DNA of 64,000 bases from the NCBI GenBank assembly GCA_910589155.1, contig CAJURY010000004.1, positions 29,157 through 93,156 on the forward strand. The letters are read 5' to 3'. Within the stretch, counting starts at the first letter, position 1. Every line of letters begins with the position of its first letter. This DNA comes from an uncultured Oscillospiraceae bacterium. GTDB lineage: Bacteria > Bacillota > Clostridia > Oscillospirales > Oscillospiraceae. This document shows positions 955 to 58,630 of the stretch, one piece after another. The notes beneath the pieces were generated by a model, which made no database searches, was not told the DNA's origin, and saw only the letters and a list, made by a program, of their open reading frames with translations. The translations under genes and the position numbers were made by a program.

Positions 955-1300
955 GCGGGCGCTCCCGTAACGCGTTGCCCACCAATCACAGCGTAGGGGC
1001 GCACCTATGTGTGCGCCCGTTGCAACCCGTCAAGTCTCCGGCGCAAAAGGCGCCTACCGGCGGGCGGACACGCAGGTTCGCCCCTAGGGCTCGCCTTGGT
1101 ATTTTGGCGTAGTTTAAGCCGATAGCCCCCCCAAGGGTGTGCCAAATCTGTAGTGGGGTGCGTAACGCATTGCCAGCGGGCGCTGCCCGTTTAGGGAGGG
1201 TTCAGTATTTTGGGCTAGTTCTTTTCGAGTGTCCCCCAAAAGGGTGCCAAATCTGTAGCGGCCTAGGTAACGCGCTGCCAGCGGGCGCTGCCCGCACGAT
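955..1300. repeat. Intergenic repeat mosaic: inverted REP-like pair plus two ~95-nt B units
   Basis: The REP pair is GTAGGGGCGCACCTATGTGTGCGCCC at 993-1018 and its reverse-orientation variant at 1062-1087. Two B units (core CCCCCAAGGGTGTGCCAAATCTGTAG...GCCAGCGGGCGCTGCCCG) lie at ~1100-1297. Confidence 0.85.
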
Positions 1301-7717: not shown

Positions 7718-7939
7718 ATGACGTTTGGAAAAAGACTGAACACAGTAAGAAAAAGCCGGGGATACACCGCCCAGCAAATGGCGGACGTTTTGGGCGTGGC
7801 TTTGCGATCCTACCGATTTTACGAAAGCGATTACCGACAGCCGTCTTACGCCGTTTTGGTGCGTATCGCGGATACGCTGGACGTTTCCACGGACTATCTT
7901 CTTTGCAGGGACGCATTTTTAGCGCGGCACCAAACCTGA
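7718..7939 (+). CDS. XRE-family helix-turn-helix transcriptional regulator
   Basis: MTFGKRLNTVRKSRGYTAQQMADVLGVALRSYRFYESDYRQPSYAVLVRIADTLDVSTDYLL. AAGGAG RBS before the ATG at 7718. Confidence 0.75.
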   Translation: MTFGKRLNTVRKSRGYTAQQMADVLGVALRSYRFYESDYRQPSYAVLVRIADTLDVSTDYLLCRDAFLARHQT

Positions 7940-7942
7940 CGG

Positions 7943-8345
7943 GGCGGACAGCGTCCGCTGGCATCGCGTGACCTACGCCGCTGCTGATTTGACACCCCCT
8001 TGGGGGTCGCTCGACAGAAGCTGCCCCAAAATACCGCACCCTCTCTGGGCGGACAGCGTCCGCTGGCATTGCGTTTTGTACGCTGATACTGACTTGCCAC
8101 CCCCTTGGGGGGCGCTCGACAGAAGCTGCCCCAAAATACCGCACCCTCTCTGGGTGGACAGCGTCCGCTGGCATTGCGTTTTGTACGCTGATACTGACTT
8201 GTCACCCCCCTGGGGGTCACTCGACAAGAACTGCCCCAAAATACCGCACCCTCTCTGGGCGGACAGCGTCCGCTGGCATCGCGTGACCTACGCCGCTGCT
8301 GCTTTGACACCTCCTTGGGGGTCGCTCGACAGAAGCTGCCCCGGT
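7943..8345. repeat. Four tandem ~105-nt B units (reverse orientation), arranged A-B-B-A
   Basis: Units start at 7943, 8047, 8153 and 8257, each GGGCGGACAGCGTCCGCTGGCAT.... Units 1 and 4 share ...CGCGTGACCTACGCCGCTGCTG.... Units 2 and 3 share ...TGCGTTTTGTACGCTGATACTGACTTG.... Confidence 0.9.
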
Positions 8346-8449
8346 ATGCGTACATTTCCGCAGAGCATTGTAGGGCGCGGACATATCCGCGCTGGGTACT
8401 TGCAAATTTAGGATGCACATCAATTCTTGGTAAAGACCTTTTCAACACC

Positions 8450-8767
8450 GTAGGGGCGAACCTATGTGTGCGCCCGTTGCAGCCCGACAAGTTTCCGGGG
8501 CAATTTCGTAAGAACGCTGTCATTGCGGAAAGGCGGAGCCGACGCAGGCTTTCCATACAAAGCTGTTTCAGATTGCCACACCAGTGAAAGCGAACAACCA
8601 AACCGAAGCTCAGCGAAGTGGGTTCGGTTTGGAGAGGAGGGGCAACGAAATTCTGTATGTTCCGGCGCAAGCGCCGGAACATACGCATTGGAGTTTGCCC
8701 CGACGAGGTTCGCAATGACAAATTGGAAACTGCCTTCCGGAGGACGAATACATAGGGCCGACCCTAC
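8450..8767. repeat. ~320-bp composite (C) element bounded by inverted REP-like hairpins
   Basis: GTAG-hairpin at 8450-8475 and an inverted degenerate copy at 8742-8767. Internal 14-bp perfect hairpin GTATGTTCCGGCGC-AA-GCGCCGGAACATAC at 8655-8684. Near-full copies lie at 46614-46928 (inverted) and 50135-50462. Confidence 0.9.
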
Positions 8768-8909
8768 GGCGACGAATGGTATTTTCACAGGCAAATTTGC
8801 TTGCATCATGGGGCATTTGGTTGTATAATGAGGAAAAATGGAATTTTTGGGTCTGTACGATGAATCGCCCAAACCCAAGGGCTGCGTATACAGGCTTCTG
8901 GGAGGAAGT

Positions 8910-19668: not shown

Positions 19669-19699
19669 CGGGCAGCGCTCCTATGACACGGCAGGAAGT

Positions 19700-19801
19700 T
19701 ACCGCGCAAAATAGGCGGCAGTTCTTGTCGAGTGACCCCCAAGGGTGTGTCAAGTCAGCAACCGCGCTCATAACGCATCGTCAGCGGACACCGTCCGCCG
19801 C
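19700..19801. repeat. Single B-unit repeat between the dnaA stop and the DnaA-box cluster
   Basis: GTCGAGTGACCCCCAAGGGTGTGTCAAGTCAGC...CAGCGGACACCGTCCGCC, the same family as 7943-8345. Confidence 0.8.
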
Positions 19802-19818
19802 TTTTTTGGCGCAAAAAT

Positions 19819-19973
19819 TTTTCCACAGGGGATGTGGAATGTGCAGAAACGCGCTGTGGAAAAAATTGCACAAATTTTTGAAAAATTTCGCCTGTGTACA
19901 AGCTGTGCTGAAATTCCACAGGGGTTGTGGACAAAAAACAACGGGATTGCGTGGCTTCTGCTTGTTTTCCACA
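19819..19973. promoter_or_regulatory. oriC DnaA-box cluster (six boxes)
   Basis: TTTTCCACA 19819-19827, TGTGGAATG 19833-19841, TGTGGAAAA 19855-19863, AATTCCACA 19912-19920, TGTGGACAA 19926-19934, TTTTCCACA 19965-19973. Each is 1-2 mismatches from TTATCCACA. An AT-rich stretch follows at ~20000-20050. Confidence 0.75.
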
Positions 19974-20059
19974 TAAGTTTTCCCTACTCCTGCAAAAACT
20001 AACAAATTCCTTTCTGTTTATACTATCATCTATATTTTTACAAGAAAGAAGGTTGCCGT

Positions 20060-21172
20060 ATGCGTTTTACCTGTGAAAAAAGCGAACTGGTTTACGCCAT
20101 CAGTATTGCCAGCCGAACCGTCTCCCAAAAAAGCACTCTGCAAGTGCTGGAAGGCATCTTATGCAAAGCCGGTCACGGTTTATACCTTTCCGGCTACAAT
20201 CTGGAAACTGGCATTACCGTCCATGTAGAGGCCGACGTGGTGGAAAGCGGTTCTTGCATCTTCCCTGCCCGGCTATTTTTCGACATCGTGCGTCGTTTGC
20301 CGGAAGGACAGGTGACGATTGTGGTAGATGAAAATTATAAGGTTTCCATCCGGGCAAGCTACGCCTCCTTTACCATTTCCGCCTCCGACCCGGAGGATTA
20401 CCCGGAGCTGCCCGACGTGGAGAGCAACAAGGGCGTGCATATCCCTCAGTGCAAGCTGCGGGAACTGATCTCCGGCACCTTATTCGCCGTGTCGGAAAAT
20501 CAGGGGCGACCCATTCACACGGGTTGTCTTTTTGAAGTAGAGGACGACGGCATTACCGTGGTGGCGGTAGACGGCTACCGTCTGGCTCGCCGTACCTGGC
20601 GCCCCGAAGAGCCCACAGGCAGAACCATGAAATTTGTGGTTCCCTCCCCTGCCTTGAAGGAAGTGGAAAAAATTCTGGCGGATACCCAGGAGGACGCTGT
20701 GTTTACCCTAGGCCCCAAGCATATTTTGTTCGAGGTAGGCGACGCGACTCTGGTCTGCCGCCTGCTGGAGGGCGAATTTTTAAACTGGCGGCAGGTGGTG
20801 CCCACAAACAGCCCCATAAAGCTTGTGGCAAAGGTGAGTCAGCTTGCGGCTTCCTTTGAGCGGGTGGGTCTTATCGTGTCGGAAAAGGTGAAAAGCCCGG
20901 TGCGCTGCACCTTTGGAGAAAACGAAGCCCACTTCCTCACCAATACCACCATCGGCAACGCGGAGGATCGCTGCTGTGTGGCGGGCAATGGCCAGGGACT
21001 GGAAATCGGCTTTAACTGCCGTTATATTCTAGACGCTTTGCGGGCGGTGCCCAATGAGGAGGTATGTCTGGAAATGCGGGACGGCCTCAGCCCCCTCGTC
21101 TTTACCCCTGTGGACGAAAAGGAAGATTACGCTTATATGGTATTGCCGGTGCGTCTGAAAGCCGGTTCATAA
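20060..21172 (+). CDS. dnaN: DNA polymerase III beta sliding clamp
   Basis: MRFTCEKSELVYAISIASRTVSQKSTLQVLEGIL...; 370 aa, in the canonical position after dnaA. Confidence 0.95.
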   Translation: MRFTCEKSELVYAISIASRTVSQKSTLQVLEGILCKAGHGLYLSGYNLETGITVHVEADVVESGSCIFPARLFFDIVRRLPEGQVTIVVDENYKVSIRASYASFTISASDPEDYPELPDVESNKGVHIPQCKLRELISGTLFAVSENQGRPIHTGCLFEVEDDGITVVAVDGYRLARRTWRPEEPTGRTMKFVVPSPALKEVEKILADTQEDAVFTLGPKHILFEVGDATLVCRLLEGEFLNWRQVVPTNSPIKLVAKVSQLAASFERVGLIVSEKVKSPVRCTFGENEAHFLTNTTIGNAEDRCCVAGNGQGLEIGFNCRYILDALRAVPNEEVCLEMRDGLSPLVFTPVDEKEDYAYMVLPVRLKAGS

Positions 21173-22556: not shown

Positions 22557-22639
22557 CGCGCTACAAGCGGTTGTATTTATTTGACACGCTGTGGCGCGGG
22601 AGCGCCAAAGCCTCCCTTGTGTAAAGGGAGGTGGCACGG

Positions 22640-22860
22640 CGCAGCCGTGACGGAGGGATTGTCGTGCAAACGAAGTATAATAAGCAGTTTGCGCCGGAAA
22701 CTTGCCGGGCTGCGCCGGGCGCACACATCGGTGCGCCCCTACGGCATAGCAGGAAAATGCCGCGCAAATTGAGACGGCAGCCGCTGTCGAGCGACCCCCA
22801 AGGGTGTGCCAAATCTGCAGCGGGGTTCGTGACGCATTGCCAGTGGGCGCTGCCCGCCTC
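22640..22860. repeat. Repeat mosaic (truncated C element, inverted REP, one B unit) between recF and gyrB
   Basis: REP (rc) at 22717-22742. B unit ~22765-22858 (GTCGAGCGACCCCCAAGGGTGTGCCAAATCTGCAG...GCCAGTGGGCGCTGCCCGC). Confidence 0.8.
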
Positions 22861-22982
22861 TATGGCATATGTTTGGATTGTCCGCTGATATGCAATGTTT
22901 CTTCTGTTTTTTATTATGATTGAAAATAAGCCAAATATTTGGCTTTTCAAATAAATTTTCGCATTTTCTCAAATTTCTTTGA

Positions 22983-24932
<1,950 letters not shown>

Positions 24933-24958: not shown

Positions 24959-24990
24959 CTGTAGGGCGGGGTCATGACCCCGCCGGGCAC
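24959..24990. repeat. Left flanking REP-like hairpin of the RayT remnant
   Basis: CTGTAGGGCGGGGTCATGACCCCGCCGGGCAC. GTAG is followed by the GGCGGGGTCATGACCCCGCC palindrome. Confidence 0.8.
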
Positions 24991-25026
24991 TGATTCATGC
25001 AGCATCCATCGCTTTTTTATTTATAT

Positions 25027-25330
25027 GAAAGATGAGTTTGAGCGCCTGTTCTATCCCAAAAGAAAAAATCCCCGGCTGAAAAATGGATTGTTATGCCAAG
25101 TCACATTCATATGATTCTTGTACTGCAAGAACAAGCTGCTCCTTTGCCTGCTTTAGTCGGTCAATATAAATCCTATGTTACAAGAAAAATTCATGAAATG
25201 TATCCCATTTTGAATGTTTGGCAAAGGCATTTCATGAGCATGTAATACGAAATCAGGCAGGTTATGAAAAAAATTTGGAATTACATTGATGAAAATCCCA
25301 TGAAGTGGAGGACGATTGCTTTTTCATTAG
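25027..25330 (+). pseudogene. Frameshifted, N-terminally truncated IS200/IS605-type HUH (Y1) transposase, RayT-like
   Basis: One frame gives WIVMPSHIHMILVLQEQAAPLPALVGQYKSYVTRKIHEMYPILNVWQR (HUH = HIH at 25102-25110). Other frames give FHEHVIRNQAGYEK and KIWNYIDENPMKW (catalytic-Tyr motif YIxxNP). At least three frame changes, AT-rich. Not in the ORF track. Confidence 0.7.
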
Positions 25331-25425
25331 GGAATAGCGTTATAAATGCAGAAATGCTGTCAATATAAAATGAAAGGCAAAGTTATTTTGCAGAAGCGTA
25401 TTTGCCATCATAATTGAATTTTTAA

Positions 25426-25457
25426 CTGCCCGGCGGAGTCATGACTTCGCCCTACAG
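25426..25457. repeat. Right flanking REP-like hairpin (inverted copy of 24959-24990)
   Basis: CTGCCCGGCGGAGTCATGACTTCGCCCTACAG is the reverse complement of the left repeat with 3 substitutions. Two of them sit at paired stem positions but do not restore pairing. Confidence 0.8.
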
Positions 25458-28131: not shown

Positions 28132-28285
28132 ATATGAACTGGGGCGCAGTTTCAAGAATGCGTCATATGCCTGCAAAATTTGAAACATATTCCAATTCTT
28201 TGCAAGAACCAATTTTCGCCGCAAGGGCGCAACTGCGTGTTCGCCTGTTTCCACCCGGCTTTCGGCGCAAGCCCAATAAAAGATC

Positions 28286-28413
28286 GTAGTATGTGTGCGC
28301 CCGTTTCCAACTTTTCGTGAGAACGCTGTCATTGCGCGAAAGCATAGTCAACGCGGCAATCTCTCGAATCTGTCATTGCCTCCCAACGGGCGAACACACA
28401 GGTTCGCCCCTAC
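28286..28413. repeat. Short (~130 bp) C-type element with REP ends
   Basis: Truncated GTAG end at 28286-28302. Internal ...GAGAACGCTGTCATTGCG.... Inverted REP at 28388-28413 (GGGCGAAC/GTTCGCCC stem). Confidence 0.75.
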
Positions 28414-42613: not shown

Positions 42614-42639
42614 TGAGGGGCGAACCTGTATGTCCGCCC
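42614..42639. repeat. REP-like hairpin inside the thrS 5' UTR
   Basis: TGAGGGGCGAACCTGTATGTCCGCCC, between the T-box terminator and the thrS start codon. Confidence 0.7.
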
Positions 42640-42690: not shown

Positions 42691-42954
42691 GGGGCAAAAC
42701 AAAACGCCTCACCCCTGAAACTTTCAGGGGTGAGGCGATCAACGCTCCACGGTTCCACCCTGCTTACGGCAAAATTTGCCGTCGCTTGTGATCGCTGTAA
42801 CGGGCGAACCCGTCCCGCCATACTTGCAGCTTCCCGCTTTCCGCCGGGCGGCTCAGAAGTGGTGCAACGCCAAAAAATTTCGCAGAGCCTTTCCAGCGCC
42901 CGGCTCCTCTCTGTGCGCATTTTTGACGTCAGGTCTTCCTCACAGCCTATTTTC
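42691..42954 (-). promoter_or_regulatory. T-box riboswitch leader (Thr, ACC specifier) with its promoter just upstream
   Basis: On the minus strand: promoter TTGACA (42984-42989), 17 nt, TATAGT (42961-42966). Stem I has an AGAGAGGAG motif. The specifier is GTTGCACCACTTC, with ACC at 42861-42863. T-box sequence AGGGTGGAACCGTGG at ~42747-42763. Terminator CGCCTCACCCCTGAAAGTTTCAGGGGTGAGGCG plus TTTTGTTTT at 42691-42737. Confidence 0.85.
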
Positions 42955-43151
42955 ATTCACACTATACCACGCTTTCTCCTTTCTGTCAACTGGATTCTTT
43001 TGGAAAAACAATTTTTTGCAAAATGTTTGTAATTTTTGGTATTCGACGGAAAACCATTGACTTTTTGGCTGTAACAGTTATAATAGCAAAATAATCTCAA
43101 AGCGGTAACAAATTTACCGTAAAGATTTCATTTTGTAAGAAAGGGGCTTTT

Positions 43152-44274: not shown

Positions 44275-44500
44275 CGCATCCTACCATATGCCGTTGGGCG
44301 GGCGGCGCCCGCTGGCGTCGCGTTACCTGCGCCGCTGCTGACTTGCCACACCTTTTGGGGACGCTCGACAAGCACTGCCGTAAAATGCTGTTGTAGGGGC
44401 GAACCTATGTGTCCGCTCGTTTCTGTCCAATTTTCGGCGCAATTTCGTTAGAACGCTGTCATTGCCAGAGGGCGAAGCCGGCGCGGCAATCTTCTGGATA
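44275..44500. repeat. Repeat mosaic (B unit reversed plus truncated C element) between convergent genes
   Basis: B unit at ~44275-44378. REP GTAGGGGCGAACCTATGTGTCCGCTC at 44393-44418, followed by ...CAATTTCGTTAGAACGCTGTCATTGC.... Confidence 0.8.
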
Positions 44501-46447: not shown

Positions 46448-46488
46448 GCATGTAGGGCGGCATTTGGATGCCGCCCTACATGCTTTTT
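46448..46488 (+). terminator. spoVT terminator built on a GTAGGGCGGC-type stem
   Basis: GCATGTAGGGCGGCAT-TTGG-ATGCCGCCCTACATGC followed by TTTTT. Confidence 0.8.
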
Positions 46489-46613: not shown

Positions 46614-47022
46614 GTAGGGGCGCGCCTGCGTGTTCGCCCCGCCGGAAGGCAGTTTCCAATTTGTCATTGCGAACCTCGTCGGGGCAAACTCCAATGCGTA
46701 TGTTCCGGCGCTTGCGCCGGAACATACAGAATTTCGTTGCCCCTCCTCTCCAAACCGAACCCACTTCGCTGAGCTTCGGTTTGGTTGTTCGCTTTCACTG
46801 GTGTGGCAATCTGAAACAGCTTTGTGTGGAAAGCCTACGTCGGCTGCGCCTTTCCGCAATGACGGCGCTTTTACGGAATTGCGCCCAAAATTGGACAGAA
46901 ATGGGCGGACACATAGGTCTGCCCCTGCGCCAATATTTCAGGGCAGTTCCTGTCGAGTGTCCCCCAAGGGGGTGGCAGGTTTGCAGCGGTGTTCATAACG
47001 AATTGCCCACGGATGCTGCCCG
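46614..47022. repeat. Full C element (inverted relative to 8450-8767) plus one B unit
   Basis: REP ends at 46614-46640 and 46903-46928. B unit at 46932-47022, ending 5 nt from the CBS gene stop codon. Confidence 0.9.
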
Positions 47023-47026
47023 TATT

Positions 47027-48895: not shown

Positions 48896-50035
48896 ATGCT
48901 GGTCAGTTTGAAAGACGGGGCGAAGCTTGCTGGCGTTTTTCTTGTGGTTTGCTGTGCAGCGCTGATTTGCACCATGTTTTTGAGCTTCTACTTGGACGTT
49001 CTTGCAATCCACAGAGCCATTGTCACAGAAGGGGCGGAATCGTTTTATCAGGCGCAGGTATCTACTGCAAAAGTCGTGATCTTTGTCACCGGCGGGTGTC
49101 TGCTCGTTACCAGCTTGGTGATGCTCCTGTTTTACATCCGGCATTACATTGACGTCCACAAAAAAGAGCTGGGTATTTTGAAGGCCATGGGGTGCGGGGC
49201 GTGGAAAATCGCCGGGCATTTTTGGGTGTTTGGATGCAGCGTATTTTTCGGCGGGGCTGTGGGGTTCGCCGGGGCGCATTTGCTGATCCCACAGTTTTAC
49301 CGGCTGCAAAACAAGGATCATATTCTGCCGGAAATCGTGTTTCATTTCCGCCCTCTGCTTTTTGTGTATCTGGCGGCGATTCCCGCCGCGCTTTTCGCGT
49401 TTGGCTCCGTATGCTACGCCCGCCGGAAGCTGCAAAGCTCCGCCCTTTCTCTTTTGCGGGAGCAGGAATTGGCAGTTGGAAAAAGGCCTCGGCAAGTCGG
49501 CAAAAAAAGTAGGATATTTTTAGCGGATTTGCAAAAAAGCACTGTACGAAGCAAAAAAATTCTTGTGTTTTTCGTTTGGTTTGCGGCGTTTTGCTTCGCC
49601 TCCATGACCCAGATGGCCTTTAGCATGAAAGATCTCGCCAGCGAAATGATGGGCGTTATGATTTTGCTCATCGGTATGCTGCTGGCCTGCACCACGCTTT
49701 TGCTGGCCGTTACCACGGTAGTGCGGGGCAATGCCAAAACCATTGCTATGATGCGCGCTTTTGGCTATTCGGACAGACAATGCAGCCAGGGACTTTTAGG
49801 CGGCTACCGGTGGATTGGGTATTTTGGTTTTCTTCTTGGCACGGCCTATCAATACGGATTGCTGAAGCTCATGGTATACGTGGTTTTTCGGGAAATTTCC
49901 ACGCCGGATTACGGCTTTGACCTGCCAAATTGTCTGCTTTCCTTGGCGGCCTACGCCGTGTTTTATGAAGGGGCGATGTATGTGTATGCCCGGCGTATGA
50001 AAAAGCTATCCGTGAAGGAAATTATGCTTACATAG
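48896..50035 (+). CDS. ABC transporter permease, FtsX-like
   Basis: Multi-TM protein with the KKELGILKAMG FtsX-type motif. ATG 48896 after GGGTGGTGA. Confidence 0.8.
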   Translation: MLVSLKDGAKLAGVFLVVCCAALICTMFLSFYLDVLAIHRAIVTEGAESFYQAQVSTAKVVIFVTGGCLLVTSLVMLLFYIRHYIDVHKKELGILKAMGCGAWKIAGHFWVFGCSVFFGGAVGFAGAHLLIPQFYRLQNKDHILPEIVFHFRPLLFVYLAAIPAALFAFGSVCYARRKLQSSALSLLREQELAVGKRPRQVGKKSRIFLADLQKSTVRSKKILVFFVWFAAFCFASMTQMAFSMKDLASEMMGVMILLIGMLLACTTLLLAVTTVVRGNAKTIAMMRAFGYSDRQCSQGLLGGYRWIGYFGFLLGTAYQYGLLKLMVYVVFREISTPDYGFDLPNCLLSLAAYAVFYEGAMYVYARRMKKLSVKEIMLT

Positions 50036-50462
50036 CGGGCGGGCAAGCGCCCACGGGCATCGCGTTACGTACGCTGATACTGATTTGACACACCCTTGGG
50101 GGACACTCGACAGGAACTGCCCTAAAATGCTGTCGTAGGGGCGGATCTGTGTGTCCGCCCGTTTTTCCCAAAATTCCGGCGCAATTTCGTTAGAACGCCT
50201 GTCATTGCGGAAAGGCGCAGCCGACGTGGCAATCCTTATGGGCTTTCCGCAAAAAGCTGATTTTAGATTGCAACACCCGTGAAAGTGAACAACCAAACCG
50301 AAGCCCAGGGAAGCGGGTTCGGTTTGGAGAGGTGGGGCAACGAAATTCTGTATGTTCCGGCGCTTGCGCCGGAACATACGCATTGGAGTTTGCCCCGACG
50401 AGGTTCGCAACGACAAATTTGAAACTGCCTTCCGCCGGGCGCACACATAGGTGCGCCCCTAC
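50036..50462. repeat. B unit (reversed) plus full C element between convergent genes
   Basis: The B unit begins at the nucleotide after the FtsX-like stop codon. REP ends at 50135-50160 and 50437-50462. Confidence 0.9.
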
Positions 50463-55593: not shown

Positions 55594-55750
55594 TATAAAA
55601 AATCCTTTCTGGATGAAATTGGCGTAACGCCAGATAATTCTATTTTCCTCGATTTTACCATTATAGCATAGCTGTCAACAAAAAAACAGATGGAAAAGGA
55701 AATATTTCTGTTAGAAAGTGGAAATTTACCGGCGCGCGCAGCAAATTGCC

Positions 55751-55778
55751 GGCGGGCGCTGCATACGCAGCGCCCGCC
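55751..55778. repeat. Perfect 12-bp-stem hairpin
   Basis: GGCGGGCGCTGC-ATAC-GCAGCGCCCGCC. Confidence 0.7.
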
Positions 55779-55843
55779 TCCGCCTGTCTAAGAATGTCAT
55801 GAGCGCGCAGCCCGCCTACAGGGAAACTGTAATTCGCGGCATC

Positions 55844-57185: not shown

Positions 57186-58274
57186 ATGTACGAATTGATT
57201 ACAAAGGAAACCCTTGCTGAATATGAGTCCTTTCTTGCGGGGCATCCCAAGGGACATTTCGCCCAGTCCTCCCTCTGGGGGAAGCAAAAATCCGCCTGGA
57301 TCTGGCGGGCGGTGGCCGTCCGGGGCGCAGACGGTAAAATCAAAGGTTCCATGGCCTTTTTGATTCGTAAAATGCCCCTGTTTGGGGCGAGTATGCTGTA
57401 CGCCTGCCGGGGTCCTGTGTGCGATCTCGACGACCGGGCGACTTTTGCCCAGCTTCTGGAGGGCGCGAAAGCGTTGGCAAAGCAGTACCATGGCTATGTC
57501 ATTAAGGTTGATCCCGATGTGCCCTGCCAGAATACCGGGTTTGCGGAAATGATGCAGTCTTTCGGCTTCCGGGTGATGCAGACCGGCAAGAATTTTGAAG
57601 GCGTTCAGCCCAAATTCGTGTTCCGCCTGAACGTGGAGGGGAAAACGGAGGAGGAACTCATGGCCTCTTTTGCCCAGAAGCACCGCTACAACATCCGCCT
57701 TGCCGGGCGCAAGGGTGTGGAAGTGCGCCTTTGCGGGCAGGAAATGGTGCCGGATTTCACCCGTATCATGGTGGAAACCGGCGTGCGGGATAATTTTGTC
57801 ACCCGGAACGAAGCCTATTTTTCCAAAATGCTGGAAAATCTGGGAGAGCACGCCCGGCTGTACATGGCGTTTTATGAGGGGCAGCCCATTGCGGGCACCC
57901 TTGCCATTTGGTTCGGCGACAAGGTGTGGTACCTTTACGGCGCGTCCTCCAACGCCCACCGGAACCTTATGCCCAACTATCTGCTCCAGTGGAATATGAT
58001 CCAGTGGGCGGTGGAAAAGGGCTGTCGGATCTATGACTTCCGGGGGGTTTCCGGAGATCTTTCCGAGGATAATCCCCTGTACGGCCTGTATAAGTTTAAG
58101 AAGGGCTTCAACGGCGATTTTACGGAATTCGTCGGAGAAATGGATTTGATTTTGAACAAGTTTATGTATACCGCCATCGCCAAGGCCACCAAGGCCTATA
58201 AGGGATGGAACATGTTTGTTTATATGCGCAAAAATAAGAAAAAGGAAGAACCGGCGGCCAAGGCGGAAAGCTAA
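57186..58274 (+). CDS. FemAB-family peptidoglycan interpeptide-bridge aminoacyltransferase
   Basis: ...FLAGHPKGHFAQSSLWGKQK...YACRGPVCD...HRYNIRLAGRKGVEV...YLYGASSNAHRNLMPNYLLQWNMIQWA... is typical of FemX/FemAB. Confidence 0.8.
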   Translation: MYELITKETLAEYESFLAGHPKGHFAQSSLWGKQKSAWIWRAVAVRGADGKIKGSMAFLIRKMPLFGASMLYACRGPVCDLDDRATFAQLLEGAKALAKQYHGYVIKVDPDVPCQNTGFAEMMQSFGFRVMQTGKNFEGVQPKFVFRLNVEGKTEEELMASFAQKHRYNIRLAGRKGVEVRLCGQEMVPDFTRIMVETGVRDNFVTRNEAYFSKMLENLGEHARLYMAFYEGQPIAGTLAIWFGDKVWYLYGASSNAHRNLMPNYLLQWNMIQWAVEKGCRIYDFRGVSGDLSEDNPLYGLYKFKKGFNGDFTEFVGEMDLILNKFMYTAIAKATKAYKGWNMFVYMRKNKKKEEPAAKAES

Positions 58275-58630
58275 AGTGGGTGGCGCCCACGGGCAACGCG
58301 TTACGAACCCCGCTACAGGCTTGACGCACCATTGGGGGTCGCTGGACAAGAATTGCCGCCTAATTTTGCGAGGCACTTCCTGCCAAGCCGTAGGGGCGCT
58401 ACCACTTGTGCGCCCACTGGTAGGCAGCTTCAAATTTGCAACTGCAAACTACGTTGCGGCAATGCAGCAAGTTTGTTACTGGTGCGGCAATCTAAAAAAG
58501 TTACAATACGCAAAATCTTACCAAAAGAATGCCACGCCAGCGTACGCGCTGGCTCGCAATGACAGTTCTAACGAAACTGCGCCGGAAATATTGCCGGTTG
58601 CAACAGGCGGACACGCAGATTCGCCCCTAC
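58272..58630. repeat. B unit (reversed) plus ~240-bp C-type element variant
   Basis: The B unit overlaps the FemAB stop codon. REP ends at 58390-58415 and 58605-58630. Confidence 0.85.

Follow-up and report, generated by a model that had tools for sequence, protein, structure and literature searches.

GTAG-class REP doublets, lineage-specific composite repeats and a RAYT relic in a 64-kb segment from an uncultured Oscillospiraceae bacterium

The stretch of DNA analysed here, hereafter the window, comprises 64,000 nucleotides from an uncultured Oscillospiraceae bacterium (NCBI GenBank assembly GCA_910589155.1, contig CAJURY010000004.1, positions 29,157 to 93,156 of the forward strand). Many of its intergenic regions carry a short hairpin headed by the tetranucleotide GTAG, which raises two questions. 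First, what kind of element is this hairpin? Second, how did it come to occupy so many sites in a member of the Clostridia? A first-pass annotation had proposed a dense system resembling repetitive extragenic palindromes (REPs) and bacterial interspersed mosaic elements (BIMEs), with the architecture on which REP-associated tyrosine transposases (RAYTs) act. From the evidence presented below, the elements are probably GTAG-class REPs of RAYT-type origin, arranged as doublets like those termed REPINs (REP doublets forming hairpins) and as BIME-like mosaics, fused to modules of their own lineage, and either decaying or under relaxed selection.

The main hairpin of the window, referred to as type 1, consists of the GTAG foot, an 8-bp stem and a 6-nt loop, and can be written as GTAG followed by GGGCGNAC / CTRTGT / GTNCGCCC. 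An exact repeat had been reported at 993-1018 and 63789-63814; reading of the letters confirms this 26-mer, GTAGGGGCGCACCTATGTGTGCGCCC, and adds a third identical copy at 50437-50462 on the reverse strand. Altogether 15-18 copies are dispersed through the 64 kb at 12 separate intergenic sites, with more same-species sites on metagenome contigs, and all of the window copies are intergenic relative to its long open reading frames (ORFs) or called genes. A 25-mer (one G short of the 26-mer), with up to 3 mismatches allowed, matches the window 3 times versus 0.00 times in shuffled sequences. A covariance model, trained solely on copies from other genomes and applied with a cut of E<0.05, returned 15 matches, every one of them at a site named by the first-pass annotation. 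Chance is excluded, since the shuffles give no match and the independent model recovers the sites. Among the tetranucleotides that precede perfect hairpins of at least 7 bp, GTAG ranks joint top (9 of 250), tied with its one-base-shifted form TAGG.

Each of the variants listed at the outset holds the motif or a variant of it, with two poor cases: 8742-8767 (reverse strand) is a heavily mutated copy missed by the covariance model, and 42614-42639(+), a solo degenerate hairpin, has the head TGAG rather than GTAG. The copy at 18029-18058, recovered by the covariance model upstream of dnaA, is a 'double-foot' type-1 hairpin (GTAG...CTAC), a form that has been described (PMC6006769). Two copies were absent from the initial list, namely a degenerate hairpin at 28221-28246(+), which is the partner of 28388-28413(-), and a left-arm fragment at 63646-63669. 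In an Rfam scan of the window at gathering thresholds, no repeat module was matched; the looser cut of E<=1 gave two matches, both away from the repeats, namely a T-box (42723-42952) and an snoRNA at chance level (42869-43065; E 0.1).

Is the hairpin maintained for its structure? Compensatory stem changes had been claimed from the window, and three perfectly paired variants do exist, but only 9 of the 18 window copies are paired at the variable position (pair 10-21). With half of the copies mismatched, the argument from the window alone is weak; it becomes convincing with the copies of other genomes. These were collected with a pattern of 23 fixed bases, GTAGGGGCGNACCTNTGTGTNCGCCC, scanned over 596 Gb with one genome per species. 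The exact pattern matched at least 120 loci in at least 15 phyla, where by our calculation about 0.02 chance matches would be expected. At the stem position that the pattern leaves free, 140 of 142 copies are paired versus 78 expected, as G:C in 60, A:T in 55 and C:G in 23. Across 192 unique copies, each of the eight stem pairs is paired in at least 96%; pairs 10-21 (189/192) and 9-22 (188/192) each occur as at least three pair types. When the pairing partner was shifted by one column as a control, pairing collapsed outside the GGG/CCC run of the stem foot, including at both covarying pairs. In alignment A3, which was hand-picked for diversity, so that the unbiased counts are those of the 192-copy set and of a 227-copy set, 99.7% of cells are paired and double-change cells number 34 versus 5.4 in shuffles. 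The stem thus changes by compensation across other genomes, and selection on structure, first suggested from a handful of window copies, has very strong support from stem covariation.

Among the matches listed, the hosts, identified by record title, include Oscillospiraceae, other Clostridia, Bacteroidota, Chloroflexota, Nitrospirota and Desulfobacterota, besides Acidobacteriota, Pseudomonadota, Verrucomicrobiota, Planctomycetota, Omnitrophota and more. The type-1 hairpin is therefore a pan-bacterial REP type and no Clostridial invention. At these loci the hairpins mostly form head-out doublets, 5-60 nt apart. Same-orientation arrays, unlike the usual inverted doublets, were seen in two metagenome-assembled genomes (MAGs): six copies spaced 33-81 nt in a Syntrophobacterales MAG (L050, 1676-1983) and five copies spaced 53-54 nt in an Anaerolineae MAG (L107, 1591-1829).

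Which enzyme accompanies the hairpin? When the ORFs of these loci were clustered, one family was found to overlap the hairpins themselves. This Y1_Tnp gene family is present at 8 of the at least 120 loci, with the hairpin inside or adjoining the gene. Full-length genes of about 180-250 aa with a doublet inside occur at L004, L013, L023 and L093; L101 has a full-length gene with a degenerate hairpin trace inside and hairpins just upstream, while the copies at L061, L115 and L120 are cut, degenerate and frameshifted, respectively. The three proteins submitted to Pfam (L093, L004 and L101) exceed the cut-off of Y1_Tnp (PF01797), and for the two submitted to NCBIfam (L093 and L101) the best model is REP_Tyr_transpos, at E about 1e-15. 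For the Y1 genes, REP_Tyr_transpos gives much higher scores than transpos_IS200. In most of the type-1-linked genes the doublet lies in frame, with the HUH motif (MPNHxHxII) upstream and the VVQWFKTMTTNEYIRG helix downstream, i.e. before the Y motif, and in four of the five full-length proteins it encodes VGADLRVCP...GEHIGSPL. The proteins of L004, L013, L023, L093 and L101 share the motifs MPNH[IFLV]H, LWQRNY and YIxNNP (in variants, YIEENP in L093 and YILDNP in L023).

These features are those reported for TnpAREP subclass 2.4, whose members carry NH[IFV]H, WQ and YIxNNP, are about 190 aa long and contain in-frame REPs between HuH and Y (Quentin et al. 2018, BMC Genomics 19:475, PMC6006769). 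Both the motifs and the in-frame REP are found in the Y1 genes linked to type 1. The REPs of this subclass start with a GT[AG]G foot and form long hairpins whose lowest three pairs are G-C; 'double-foot' forms occur, and the range over many phyla is patchy (PMC6006769). The parenthesised numbers in Table 1 of that paper suggest that the subclass corresponds roughly to RAYT Group 4 of Bertels et al. 2017 (PMC5581495). The window elements share the foot, the long hairpin with three G-C pairs and the double-foot variants (18029-18058 and 46448-46483), and the identical hairpin stands in frame in Y1 genes of other phyla with a patchy multi-phylum spread. The type-1 hairpin thus fits the described REP class cognate to subclass 2.4. 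Several differences are also seen. The host is a Clostridial MAG, whereas the searchable text of PMC6006769 names no Firmicutes or Clostridia for the subclass, and its text-format supplements hold no Clostridial names; the window copies are unusually degenerate and fused to lineage-specific modules; and no such gene with type-1 REPs lies in the 64-kb window.

How are the hairpins arranged in the window? By self-comparison, interrelated repeat DNA amounts to about 3.4 kb, or some 5% of the window, spread over a dozen intergenic sites. That the hairpins occur mostly as inverted pairs, as had been stated, is borne out by seven head-out doublets of 95-328 bp: 993-1087, 8450-8767, 28221-28413, 46614-46928, 50135-50462, 58390-58630, and one running from 63789 to beyond 64000. 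Three doublets enclose a core of about 260 nt that reaches 96% identity between sites, and sub-modules of the core reappear in varying combinations. A further module, the B unit, is about 105 nt long, has 12 copies and, with the core as reference, is always found on one particular side of the left REP. At several intergenic sites, the module copies are 85-96% identical. Alternating REPs combined with a few conserved non-REP motifs are the architecture of a BIME, with no sequence homology to the E. coli BIME motifs. The inverted doublets also fold into one long hairpin as single-stranded DNA (ssDNA), well beyond shuffled controls, with dG -32.2 and z -4.25 for 993-1087, and dG -77 and z -5.74 for 8450-8767. 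The B unit was considered as a structured RNA and rejected: its single-sequence fold is no better than shuffles (z -0.38), and the alignment fold contains one small helix with real covariation.

Site by site, the short REPIN-like doublet 993-1087 comprises hairpins 993-1018(+) and 1062-1087(-) with a 43-nt spacer and is followed by two tandem B units on the minus strand (1098-1193 and 1202-1299; nhmmer E 3e-22 and 1e-25). Four tandem B units (7938-8348, plus strand, 105-nt period by self-comparison) and a separate GTAG hairpin of another type, GTAGGGCGCGGACATATCCGCGC, read directly at 8370-8392(+), precede the 318-bp long doublet 8450-8767, which has hairpins 8450-8475(+) and 8742-8767(-, degenerate) around the core of about 260 nt. 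The core segment of this doublet is 96% complementary to 46639-46890, within the doublet 46614-46928; there the core is reversed, and a B unit (46931-47026, minus strand) completes the element 46614-47026 in the convergent spoVT/CBS spacer. A third long element (50038-50462), in the convergent FtsX/SBP spacer, joins the B unit 50038-50133 to the doublet 50135-50462. Between FemAB and alanine racemase, the B unit 58273-58369 and the 241-bp doublet 58390-58630 make up the element 58273-58630. The doublet downstream of gyrA (28221-28413) pairs the degenerate hairpin 28221-28246(+) with an intact A:T variant, 28388-28413(-). A truncated element on the plus strand of a convergent-gene spacer (44294-44486) retains the B unit 44294-44391 and the type-1 hairpin 44393-44418, its core breaking off after 67 nt, and in the recF/gyrB spacer the hairpin 22717-22742(-) adjoins the B unit 22764-22863(-), together 22717-22863(-). 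Finally, the mosaic at 63646-64000 is composed of the left-arm REP fragment 63646-63669, a core segment and the doublet 63789-63814(+)/63984-64000(-), whose right hairpin is truncated by the window end; three B units follow directly past that end, as seen in L157 (996-1337).

Elements of such a layout, with 26-nt terminal inverted repeats, a conserved interior and copies at several intergenic sites that are 85-96% identical, could also be miniature inverted-repeat transposable elements (MITEs), i.e. deletion derivatives of a DDE transposon whose 26-bp termini are palindromic by chance. A terminal inverted repeat with a target-site duplication is not what is found, since no such duplication stands beside any of the six complete doublets, whose ends read C/GTAG...CTAC/G (the slash marks the element boundary). 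Both ends of an element are GTAG-footed hairpins in their own right, with stems that covary; there are also solo hairpins and double-foot forms; and across phyla the hairpin accompanies or sits in Y1 HUH genes, not DDE genes. Moreover, none of the other hairpin-bearing genomes listed has the interior modules. MITEs are accordingly a very improbable explanation, the least probable of those weighed here.

If the doublets are REPs, is there a RAYT in the window? A profile of the type-1-linked Y1 proteins gave two weak matches, both in the gyrB-gyrA spacer. The spacer holds an insert on the plus strand (24961-25455, GC 0.36) with a second type of GTAG hairpin, GTAGGGCGGGGTCATGACCCCGCC, in inverted orientation at its two ends (24961-24984(+) and 25432-25455(-)). 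The gene inside, at about 25020-25330, is frameshifted and lacks its N-terminus, and keeps MPSHIHMIL..., VWQ... and YIDENPMKW. Its stitched translation scores 67 bits against REP_Tyr_transpos (NF047646; E 1.6e-18, cut-off 80) over profile positions 43-134, so that no intact core of the family is present. The RAYT of the window is a pseudogene, the remnant of what may be called a 'REPtron'.

A database search returned intact homologues, P0122-P0136, of 134-173 aa, one of them named RayT by JGI. P0123 (80.4 bits) and P0130 (81.2 bits) lie above the REP_Tyr_transpos cut-off, and P0123 shows homology to the proteins of subclass-2.4 type, at 31% identity (E 5e-30). The clusters P0122, P0123 and P0129 are located between gyrB and gyrA, P0130 and P0127 directly past gyrA-rnhA, and P0125 between prfA and tsaE; the gyrB/gyrA neighbourhood therefore holds five of the six homologue clusters. 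The loci behind these positions are L131, L133-L136, L139 and L145-L148. The window relic, at the ancestral gyrB-gyrA position, is what is left of a gene whose origin-proximal location is conserved. All five homologues examined are flanked by a GTAG hairpin specific to their own lineage, which recurs elsewhere in four of those loci; in L136, GTAGGGGCCGGATATATCCGGCCC occurs in eight perfect copies within 6.6 kb. Many Clostridial loci carry type 1 together with other GTAG hairpin types. REP/RAYT systems are widespread in this part of Clostridia. The RAYT genes are AT-rich (GC 0.30-0.39 in loci of GC 0.48-0.57), namely L131 10001-10447, L133 10001-10462, L136 6001-6468, L139 5889-6410 and window 24985-25433. 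Because every lineage checked is alike in this respect, the low GC of the relic is a family trait and no sign of recent transfer.

That such a system was not known to be characterised in Clostridia reflects what has been published and not a rarity of the system, GTAG REPs and RAYTs being common in related gut Clostridia. A literature search on RAYTs or REPINs in Clostridia or Oscillospiraceae gave irrelevant microbiome papers only, and no description of Clostridial REP families was found. To our knowledge, nearly all work on REP/RAYT systems has concerned Proteobacteria. Group 1 RAYTs have been mentioned in Clostridia (Bertels et al. 2017, PMC5581495). The GTAG families of Di Nocera et al. 2013 (PMC3733652) resemble the present elements in the GTAG tag on a GC-rich stem-loop, the complementary stem changes, the prevalence of close inverted pairs and the occasional intragenic copies, including those in RAYT-type genes; their hosts are Proteobacteria, Cyanobacteria, Chloroflexi and the PVC group, and the words 'Firmicutes' and 'Clostrid' are absent from the paper.

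The REPINs and BIMEs of Pseudomonas and E. coli (Bertels & Rainey 2011, PMC3116915; Nunvar et al. 2010, PMC2817692) share with the window the extragenic inverted doublets that form a long hairpin, the mosaics with conserved linkers and a single-copy, REP-flanked RAYT, which in the window is the relic. The window differs in its Gram-positive host, in the conserved doublet spacers of up to about 260 nt and in the tandem arrays of a 105-nt B unit, and it has no sequence homology to enterobacterial or pseudomonad REPs. A typical REPIN measures about 70-110 bp overall. The likeness to IS200/IS605 elements and PATEs lies in the HUH-Y1 enzymes, the subterminal hairpins recognised as ssDNA and the lack of target-site duplication; in the window, both ends are one hairpin in inverted orientation instead of distinct left and right ends, and neither tnpB nor an omega-RNA is present. 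What had been proposed as a REP/BIME-like system of RAYT substrates is thus upheld by the GTAG foot with its palindrome, the inverted doublets, the missing target-site duplications, the Y1/RAYT linkage and the relic. It is a known kind of system in a new host lineage.

Why are so many of the window hairpins imperfect? A perfect 8-bp stem is found in 6 of 18 window copies versus 205 of 227 in other genomes, and pair 10-21 is formed in 9 of 18 versus 224 of 227 (Fisher p about 1e-8 to 1e-9). The commonest defect is A.C, i.e. G-to-A in a G:C pair, and the same position is A/G-variable among strains of the species. The REP population looks like one that is decaying, or is at least under relaxed selection, because the sole visible RAYT is a pseudogene and two thirds of the type-1 hairpins lack perfect pairing.

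Several points weigh against REPs of RAYT origin in decay and should be set beside it. The other-genome loci were picked by an exact pattern match, which inflates their stem integrity; the comparison of non-exact copies, which avoids this bias, gives 5 of 13 paired at 10-21 in the window versus 84 of 85 in other genomes; over all three comparisons the Fisher p values are about 1e-7 to 1e-9. No intact RAYT lies within the 64-kb window, the relic is flanked by type-2 and not by type-1 hairpins, and none of the Clostridial loci examined has a RAYT that carries type 1 or is flanked by it. In addition, some long copies are 96% identical over 252 nt, which indicates fairly recent copying and is awkward for a fully dead system; this recent copying could instead be recombination or gene conversion.

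Could the repeats then have been copied without any RAYT? A comparison of strains is instructive here. The window matches a section of the MAG GCA_949048195.1 at 100% identity. By amino-acid identity of FtsX (ORF start at 48896), the nearest other lineage stands at 83% and the next at 60% or less. Strains of about 98-99% identity differ from the window at several repeat sites. The B array at 7938-8348 has four units in the window and two in the related strain L158 (985-1181), and L126 and L129 show a rearrangement in the right half of the element at 50135-50462. In the dnaA-dnaN spacer, where the window has a solo B unit (19707-19803, minus strand), L142 has an extra 120-bp segment with a type-2 REP, bounded by 13-bp direct repeats. 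In the recF-gyrB spacer, the same strain (about 98% identical; 8857-10000 versus window 22557-22997) has about 700 bp extra with a DUF559 gene, a degenerate REP and a B unit. The window retains just the first ~30 nt of this DUF559 (endonuclease-like) gene, and L133 has a DUF559 gene between gyrB and gyrA. In the sister lineage L124, the spoVT-CBS site carries a REP doublet without B or core, and after ftsX the sister lineage has a plain terminator in place of the B unit and REP of the window. One candidate difference, a +167-bp insertion at 55756 in L125-L129, was dismissed as poly-G/poly-C assembly junk at a strong hairpin and is no polymorphism.

The B unit and the core are found exclusively in this species and close relatives: neither occurs in the at least 120 genome loci, and all 10 metagenome matches trace to that group. 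A megablast of the whole window against those loci, among which the source genome is not listed, likewise gave no match. This confinement, together with the variable B arrays (4 versus 2), the direct repeats or duplicated segments that flank strain differences, and the lack of an intact RAYT in the 64-kb window, would suit a scheme in which the composite (B unit, REP, core, REP) is itself the copied unit, spread by homologous recombination, gene conversion or replication slippage with the REPs as passive ends. The chimeric contig L155, in which the ftsX and araC-side loci are joined via their shared B+REP, can be counted on the same side. Recombination alone, though, puts no copies at new intergenic sites without prior homology, and the elements always terminate exactly at the GTAG foot. 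The bare L124 doublet in the spoVT-CBS spacer also speaks against the composite as the original unit and indicates that the modules were later additions to REPs already in place. We consider copying of the composite without a RAYT unlikely as an explanation of the whole.

A host function of the hairpins, as terminators, mRNA 3'-end stabilisers or protein-binding sites that selection retains locus by locus and no transposase has spread, has also to be considered. Such roles have been attributed to REPs in published work (PMC6006769, background), and several window copies lie shortly downstream of genes. The hairpin at 50139-50160 is followed by a T-run and was flagged as terminator-like. Downstream of spoVT, the hairpin described at the outset is indeed present, as a perfect 16-bp 'double-foot' GTAG hairpin with a T-run (46448-46483), 40 nt past the stop codon and terminator-like by direct reading; the terminator scan did not flag it. 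Yet the copies stand in both orientations and in inverted doublets, most of them lack T-tails, and some precede genes, such as the one at 18029 ahead of dnaA and the one at 42614 in the leader of thrS. Stems are degenerate in this genome, and near-identical 26-mers in at least 15 phyla and inside RAYT ORFs are not explicable by local selection. As the origin of the repeats, cis-regulation has in our judgement a low probability; as a secondary role it is compatible with a RAYT-borne origin, and some copies probably serve secondarily as terminators or 3'-end stabilisers.

How would the RAYT-borne REPs have spread? Cleavage and rejoining of REPs by a RAYT is known for TnpAREP of E. coli, as cited in PMC6006769. 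By analogy with the family, an HUH-Y1 RAYT/TnpAREP would recognise the folded hairpin and its 5' GTAG on ssDNA and would cleave and rejoin at the hairpin, and REP doublets could thereby spread in trans without target-site duplication. In this lineage the type-1 copies may have been spread by a RAYT acting on single-stranded hairpins. Their ends would subsequently have picked up lineage-specific passengers, the B unit and the core of about 260 nt, which were then presumably copied to several intergenic sites, and the present variation among strains would stem mainly from recombination, deletion and copy-number change.

A more inclusive account can be put forward as a tentative possibility, which we regard as doubtful in its entirety. 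Gut Clostridia of the clade would possess a vertically inherited, single-copy RAYT anchored in the origin-proximal gyrB-gyrA region, with each lineage having its own REP type. In the present species, the RAYT would be dead and the REPs, among them a type-1 family taken up from the subclass-2.4 pool shared across bacteria, would be decaying, the survivors becoming composite repeats. If this is true, a corollary follows: subclass-2.4 RAYT genes carry a REP doublet within their own ORF, and each horizontal transfer would deliver a 'seed' REPIN plus its enzyme. Such seeding would account for the identical type-1 26-mer in at least 15 phyla.

Some further observations concern the surroundings of the repeats. 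The window carries the dnaA-dnaN-recF-gyrB-gyrA cluster. Repeats near dnaA fall in two regions, 19669-20060 and 17990-18328, the double-foot REP being upstream of dnaA. The former region is the dnaA-dnaN spacer, which is probably oriC because it contains several DnaA-box-like motifs (TTTTCCACA / TGTGGAAAA / TGTGGACAA); the solo B unit is located within it. The T-box leader of thrS, at 42723-42952(-), scores 90.2 bits, slightly below the Rfam gathering score of 93, and the degenerate REP 42614-42639 lies between it and the start codon. Contigs break inside REP elements at the start of L122 (equal to window 46642) and at the start of L124. In the secA-alkZ spacer (55731-55790), a strong GC hairpin, GCCGGCGGGCGCTGCATACGCAGCGCCCGCC, is the exact point at which several public metagenome assemblies run into junk. 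Apart from the REP system, the window contains a local duplication of about 390 bp with 433-bp spacing (13949-14343 / 14382-14770, about 73% identical overall), each copy of which opens with an 81-nt stretch, 96% identical, that has a near-consensus promoter, TTGACG ... TATAAT.

The established picture of what REPs are is unchanged by these results. They extend the known range of the GTAG-REP class, and of RAYTs with lineage-specific REPs, to gut Clostridia, where such systems are common, and they show that a single 26-nt REP has been kept exactly across many phyla. The synteny of the RAYT at gyrB/gyrA is a point of modest interest. For genome work on these organisms, it matters that the repeats break MAG assemblies, give chimeric contigs and create spurious ORFs. 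Lastly, a dead RAYT beside degenerate REPs is an apparent natural test case for the idea that REPINs last only as long as the RAYT does.

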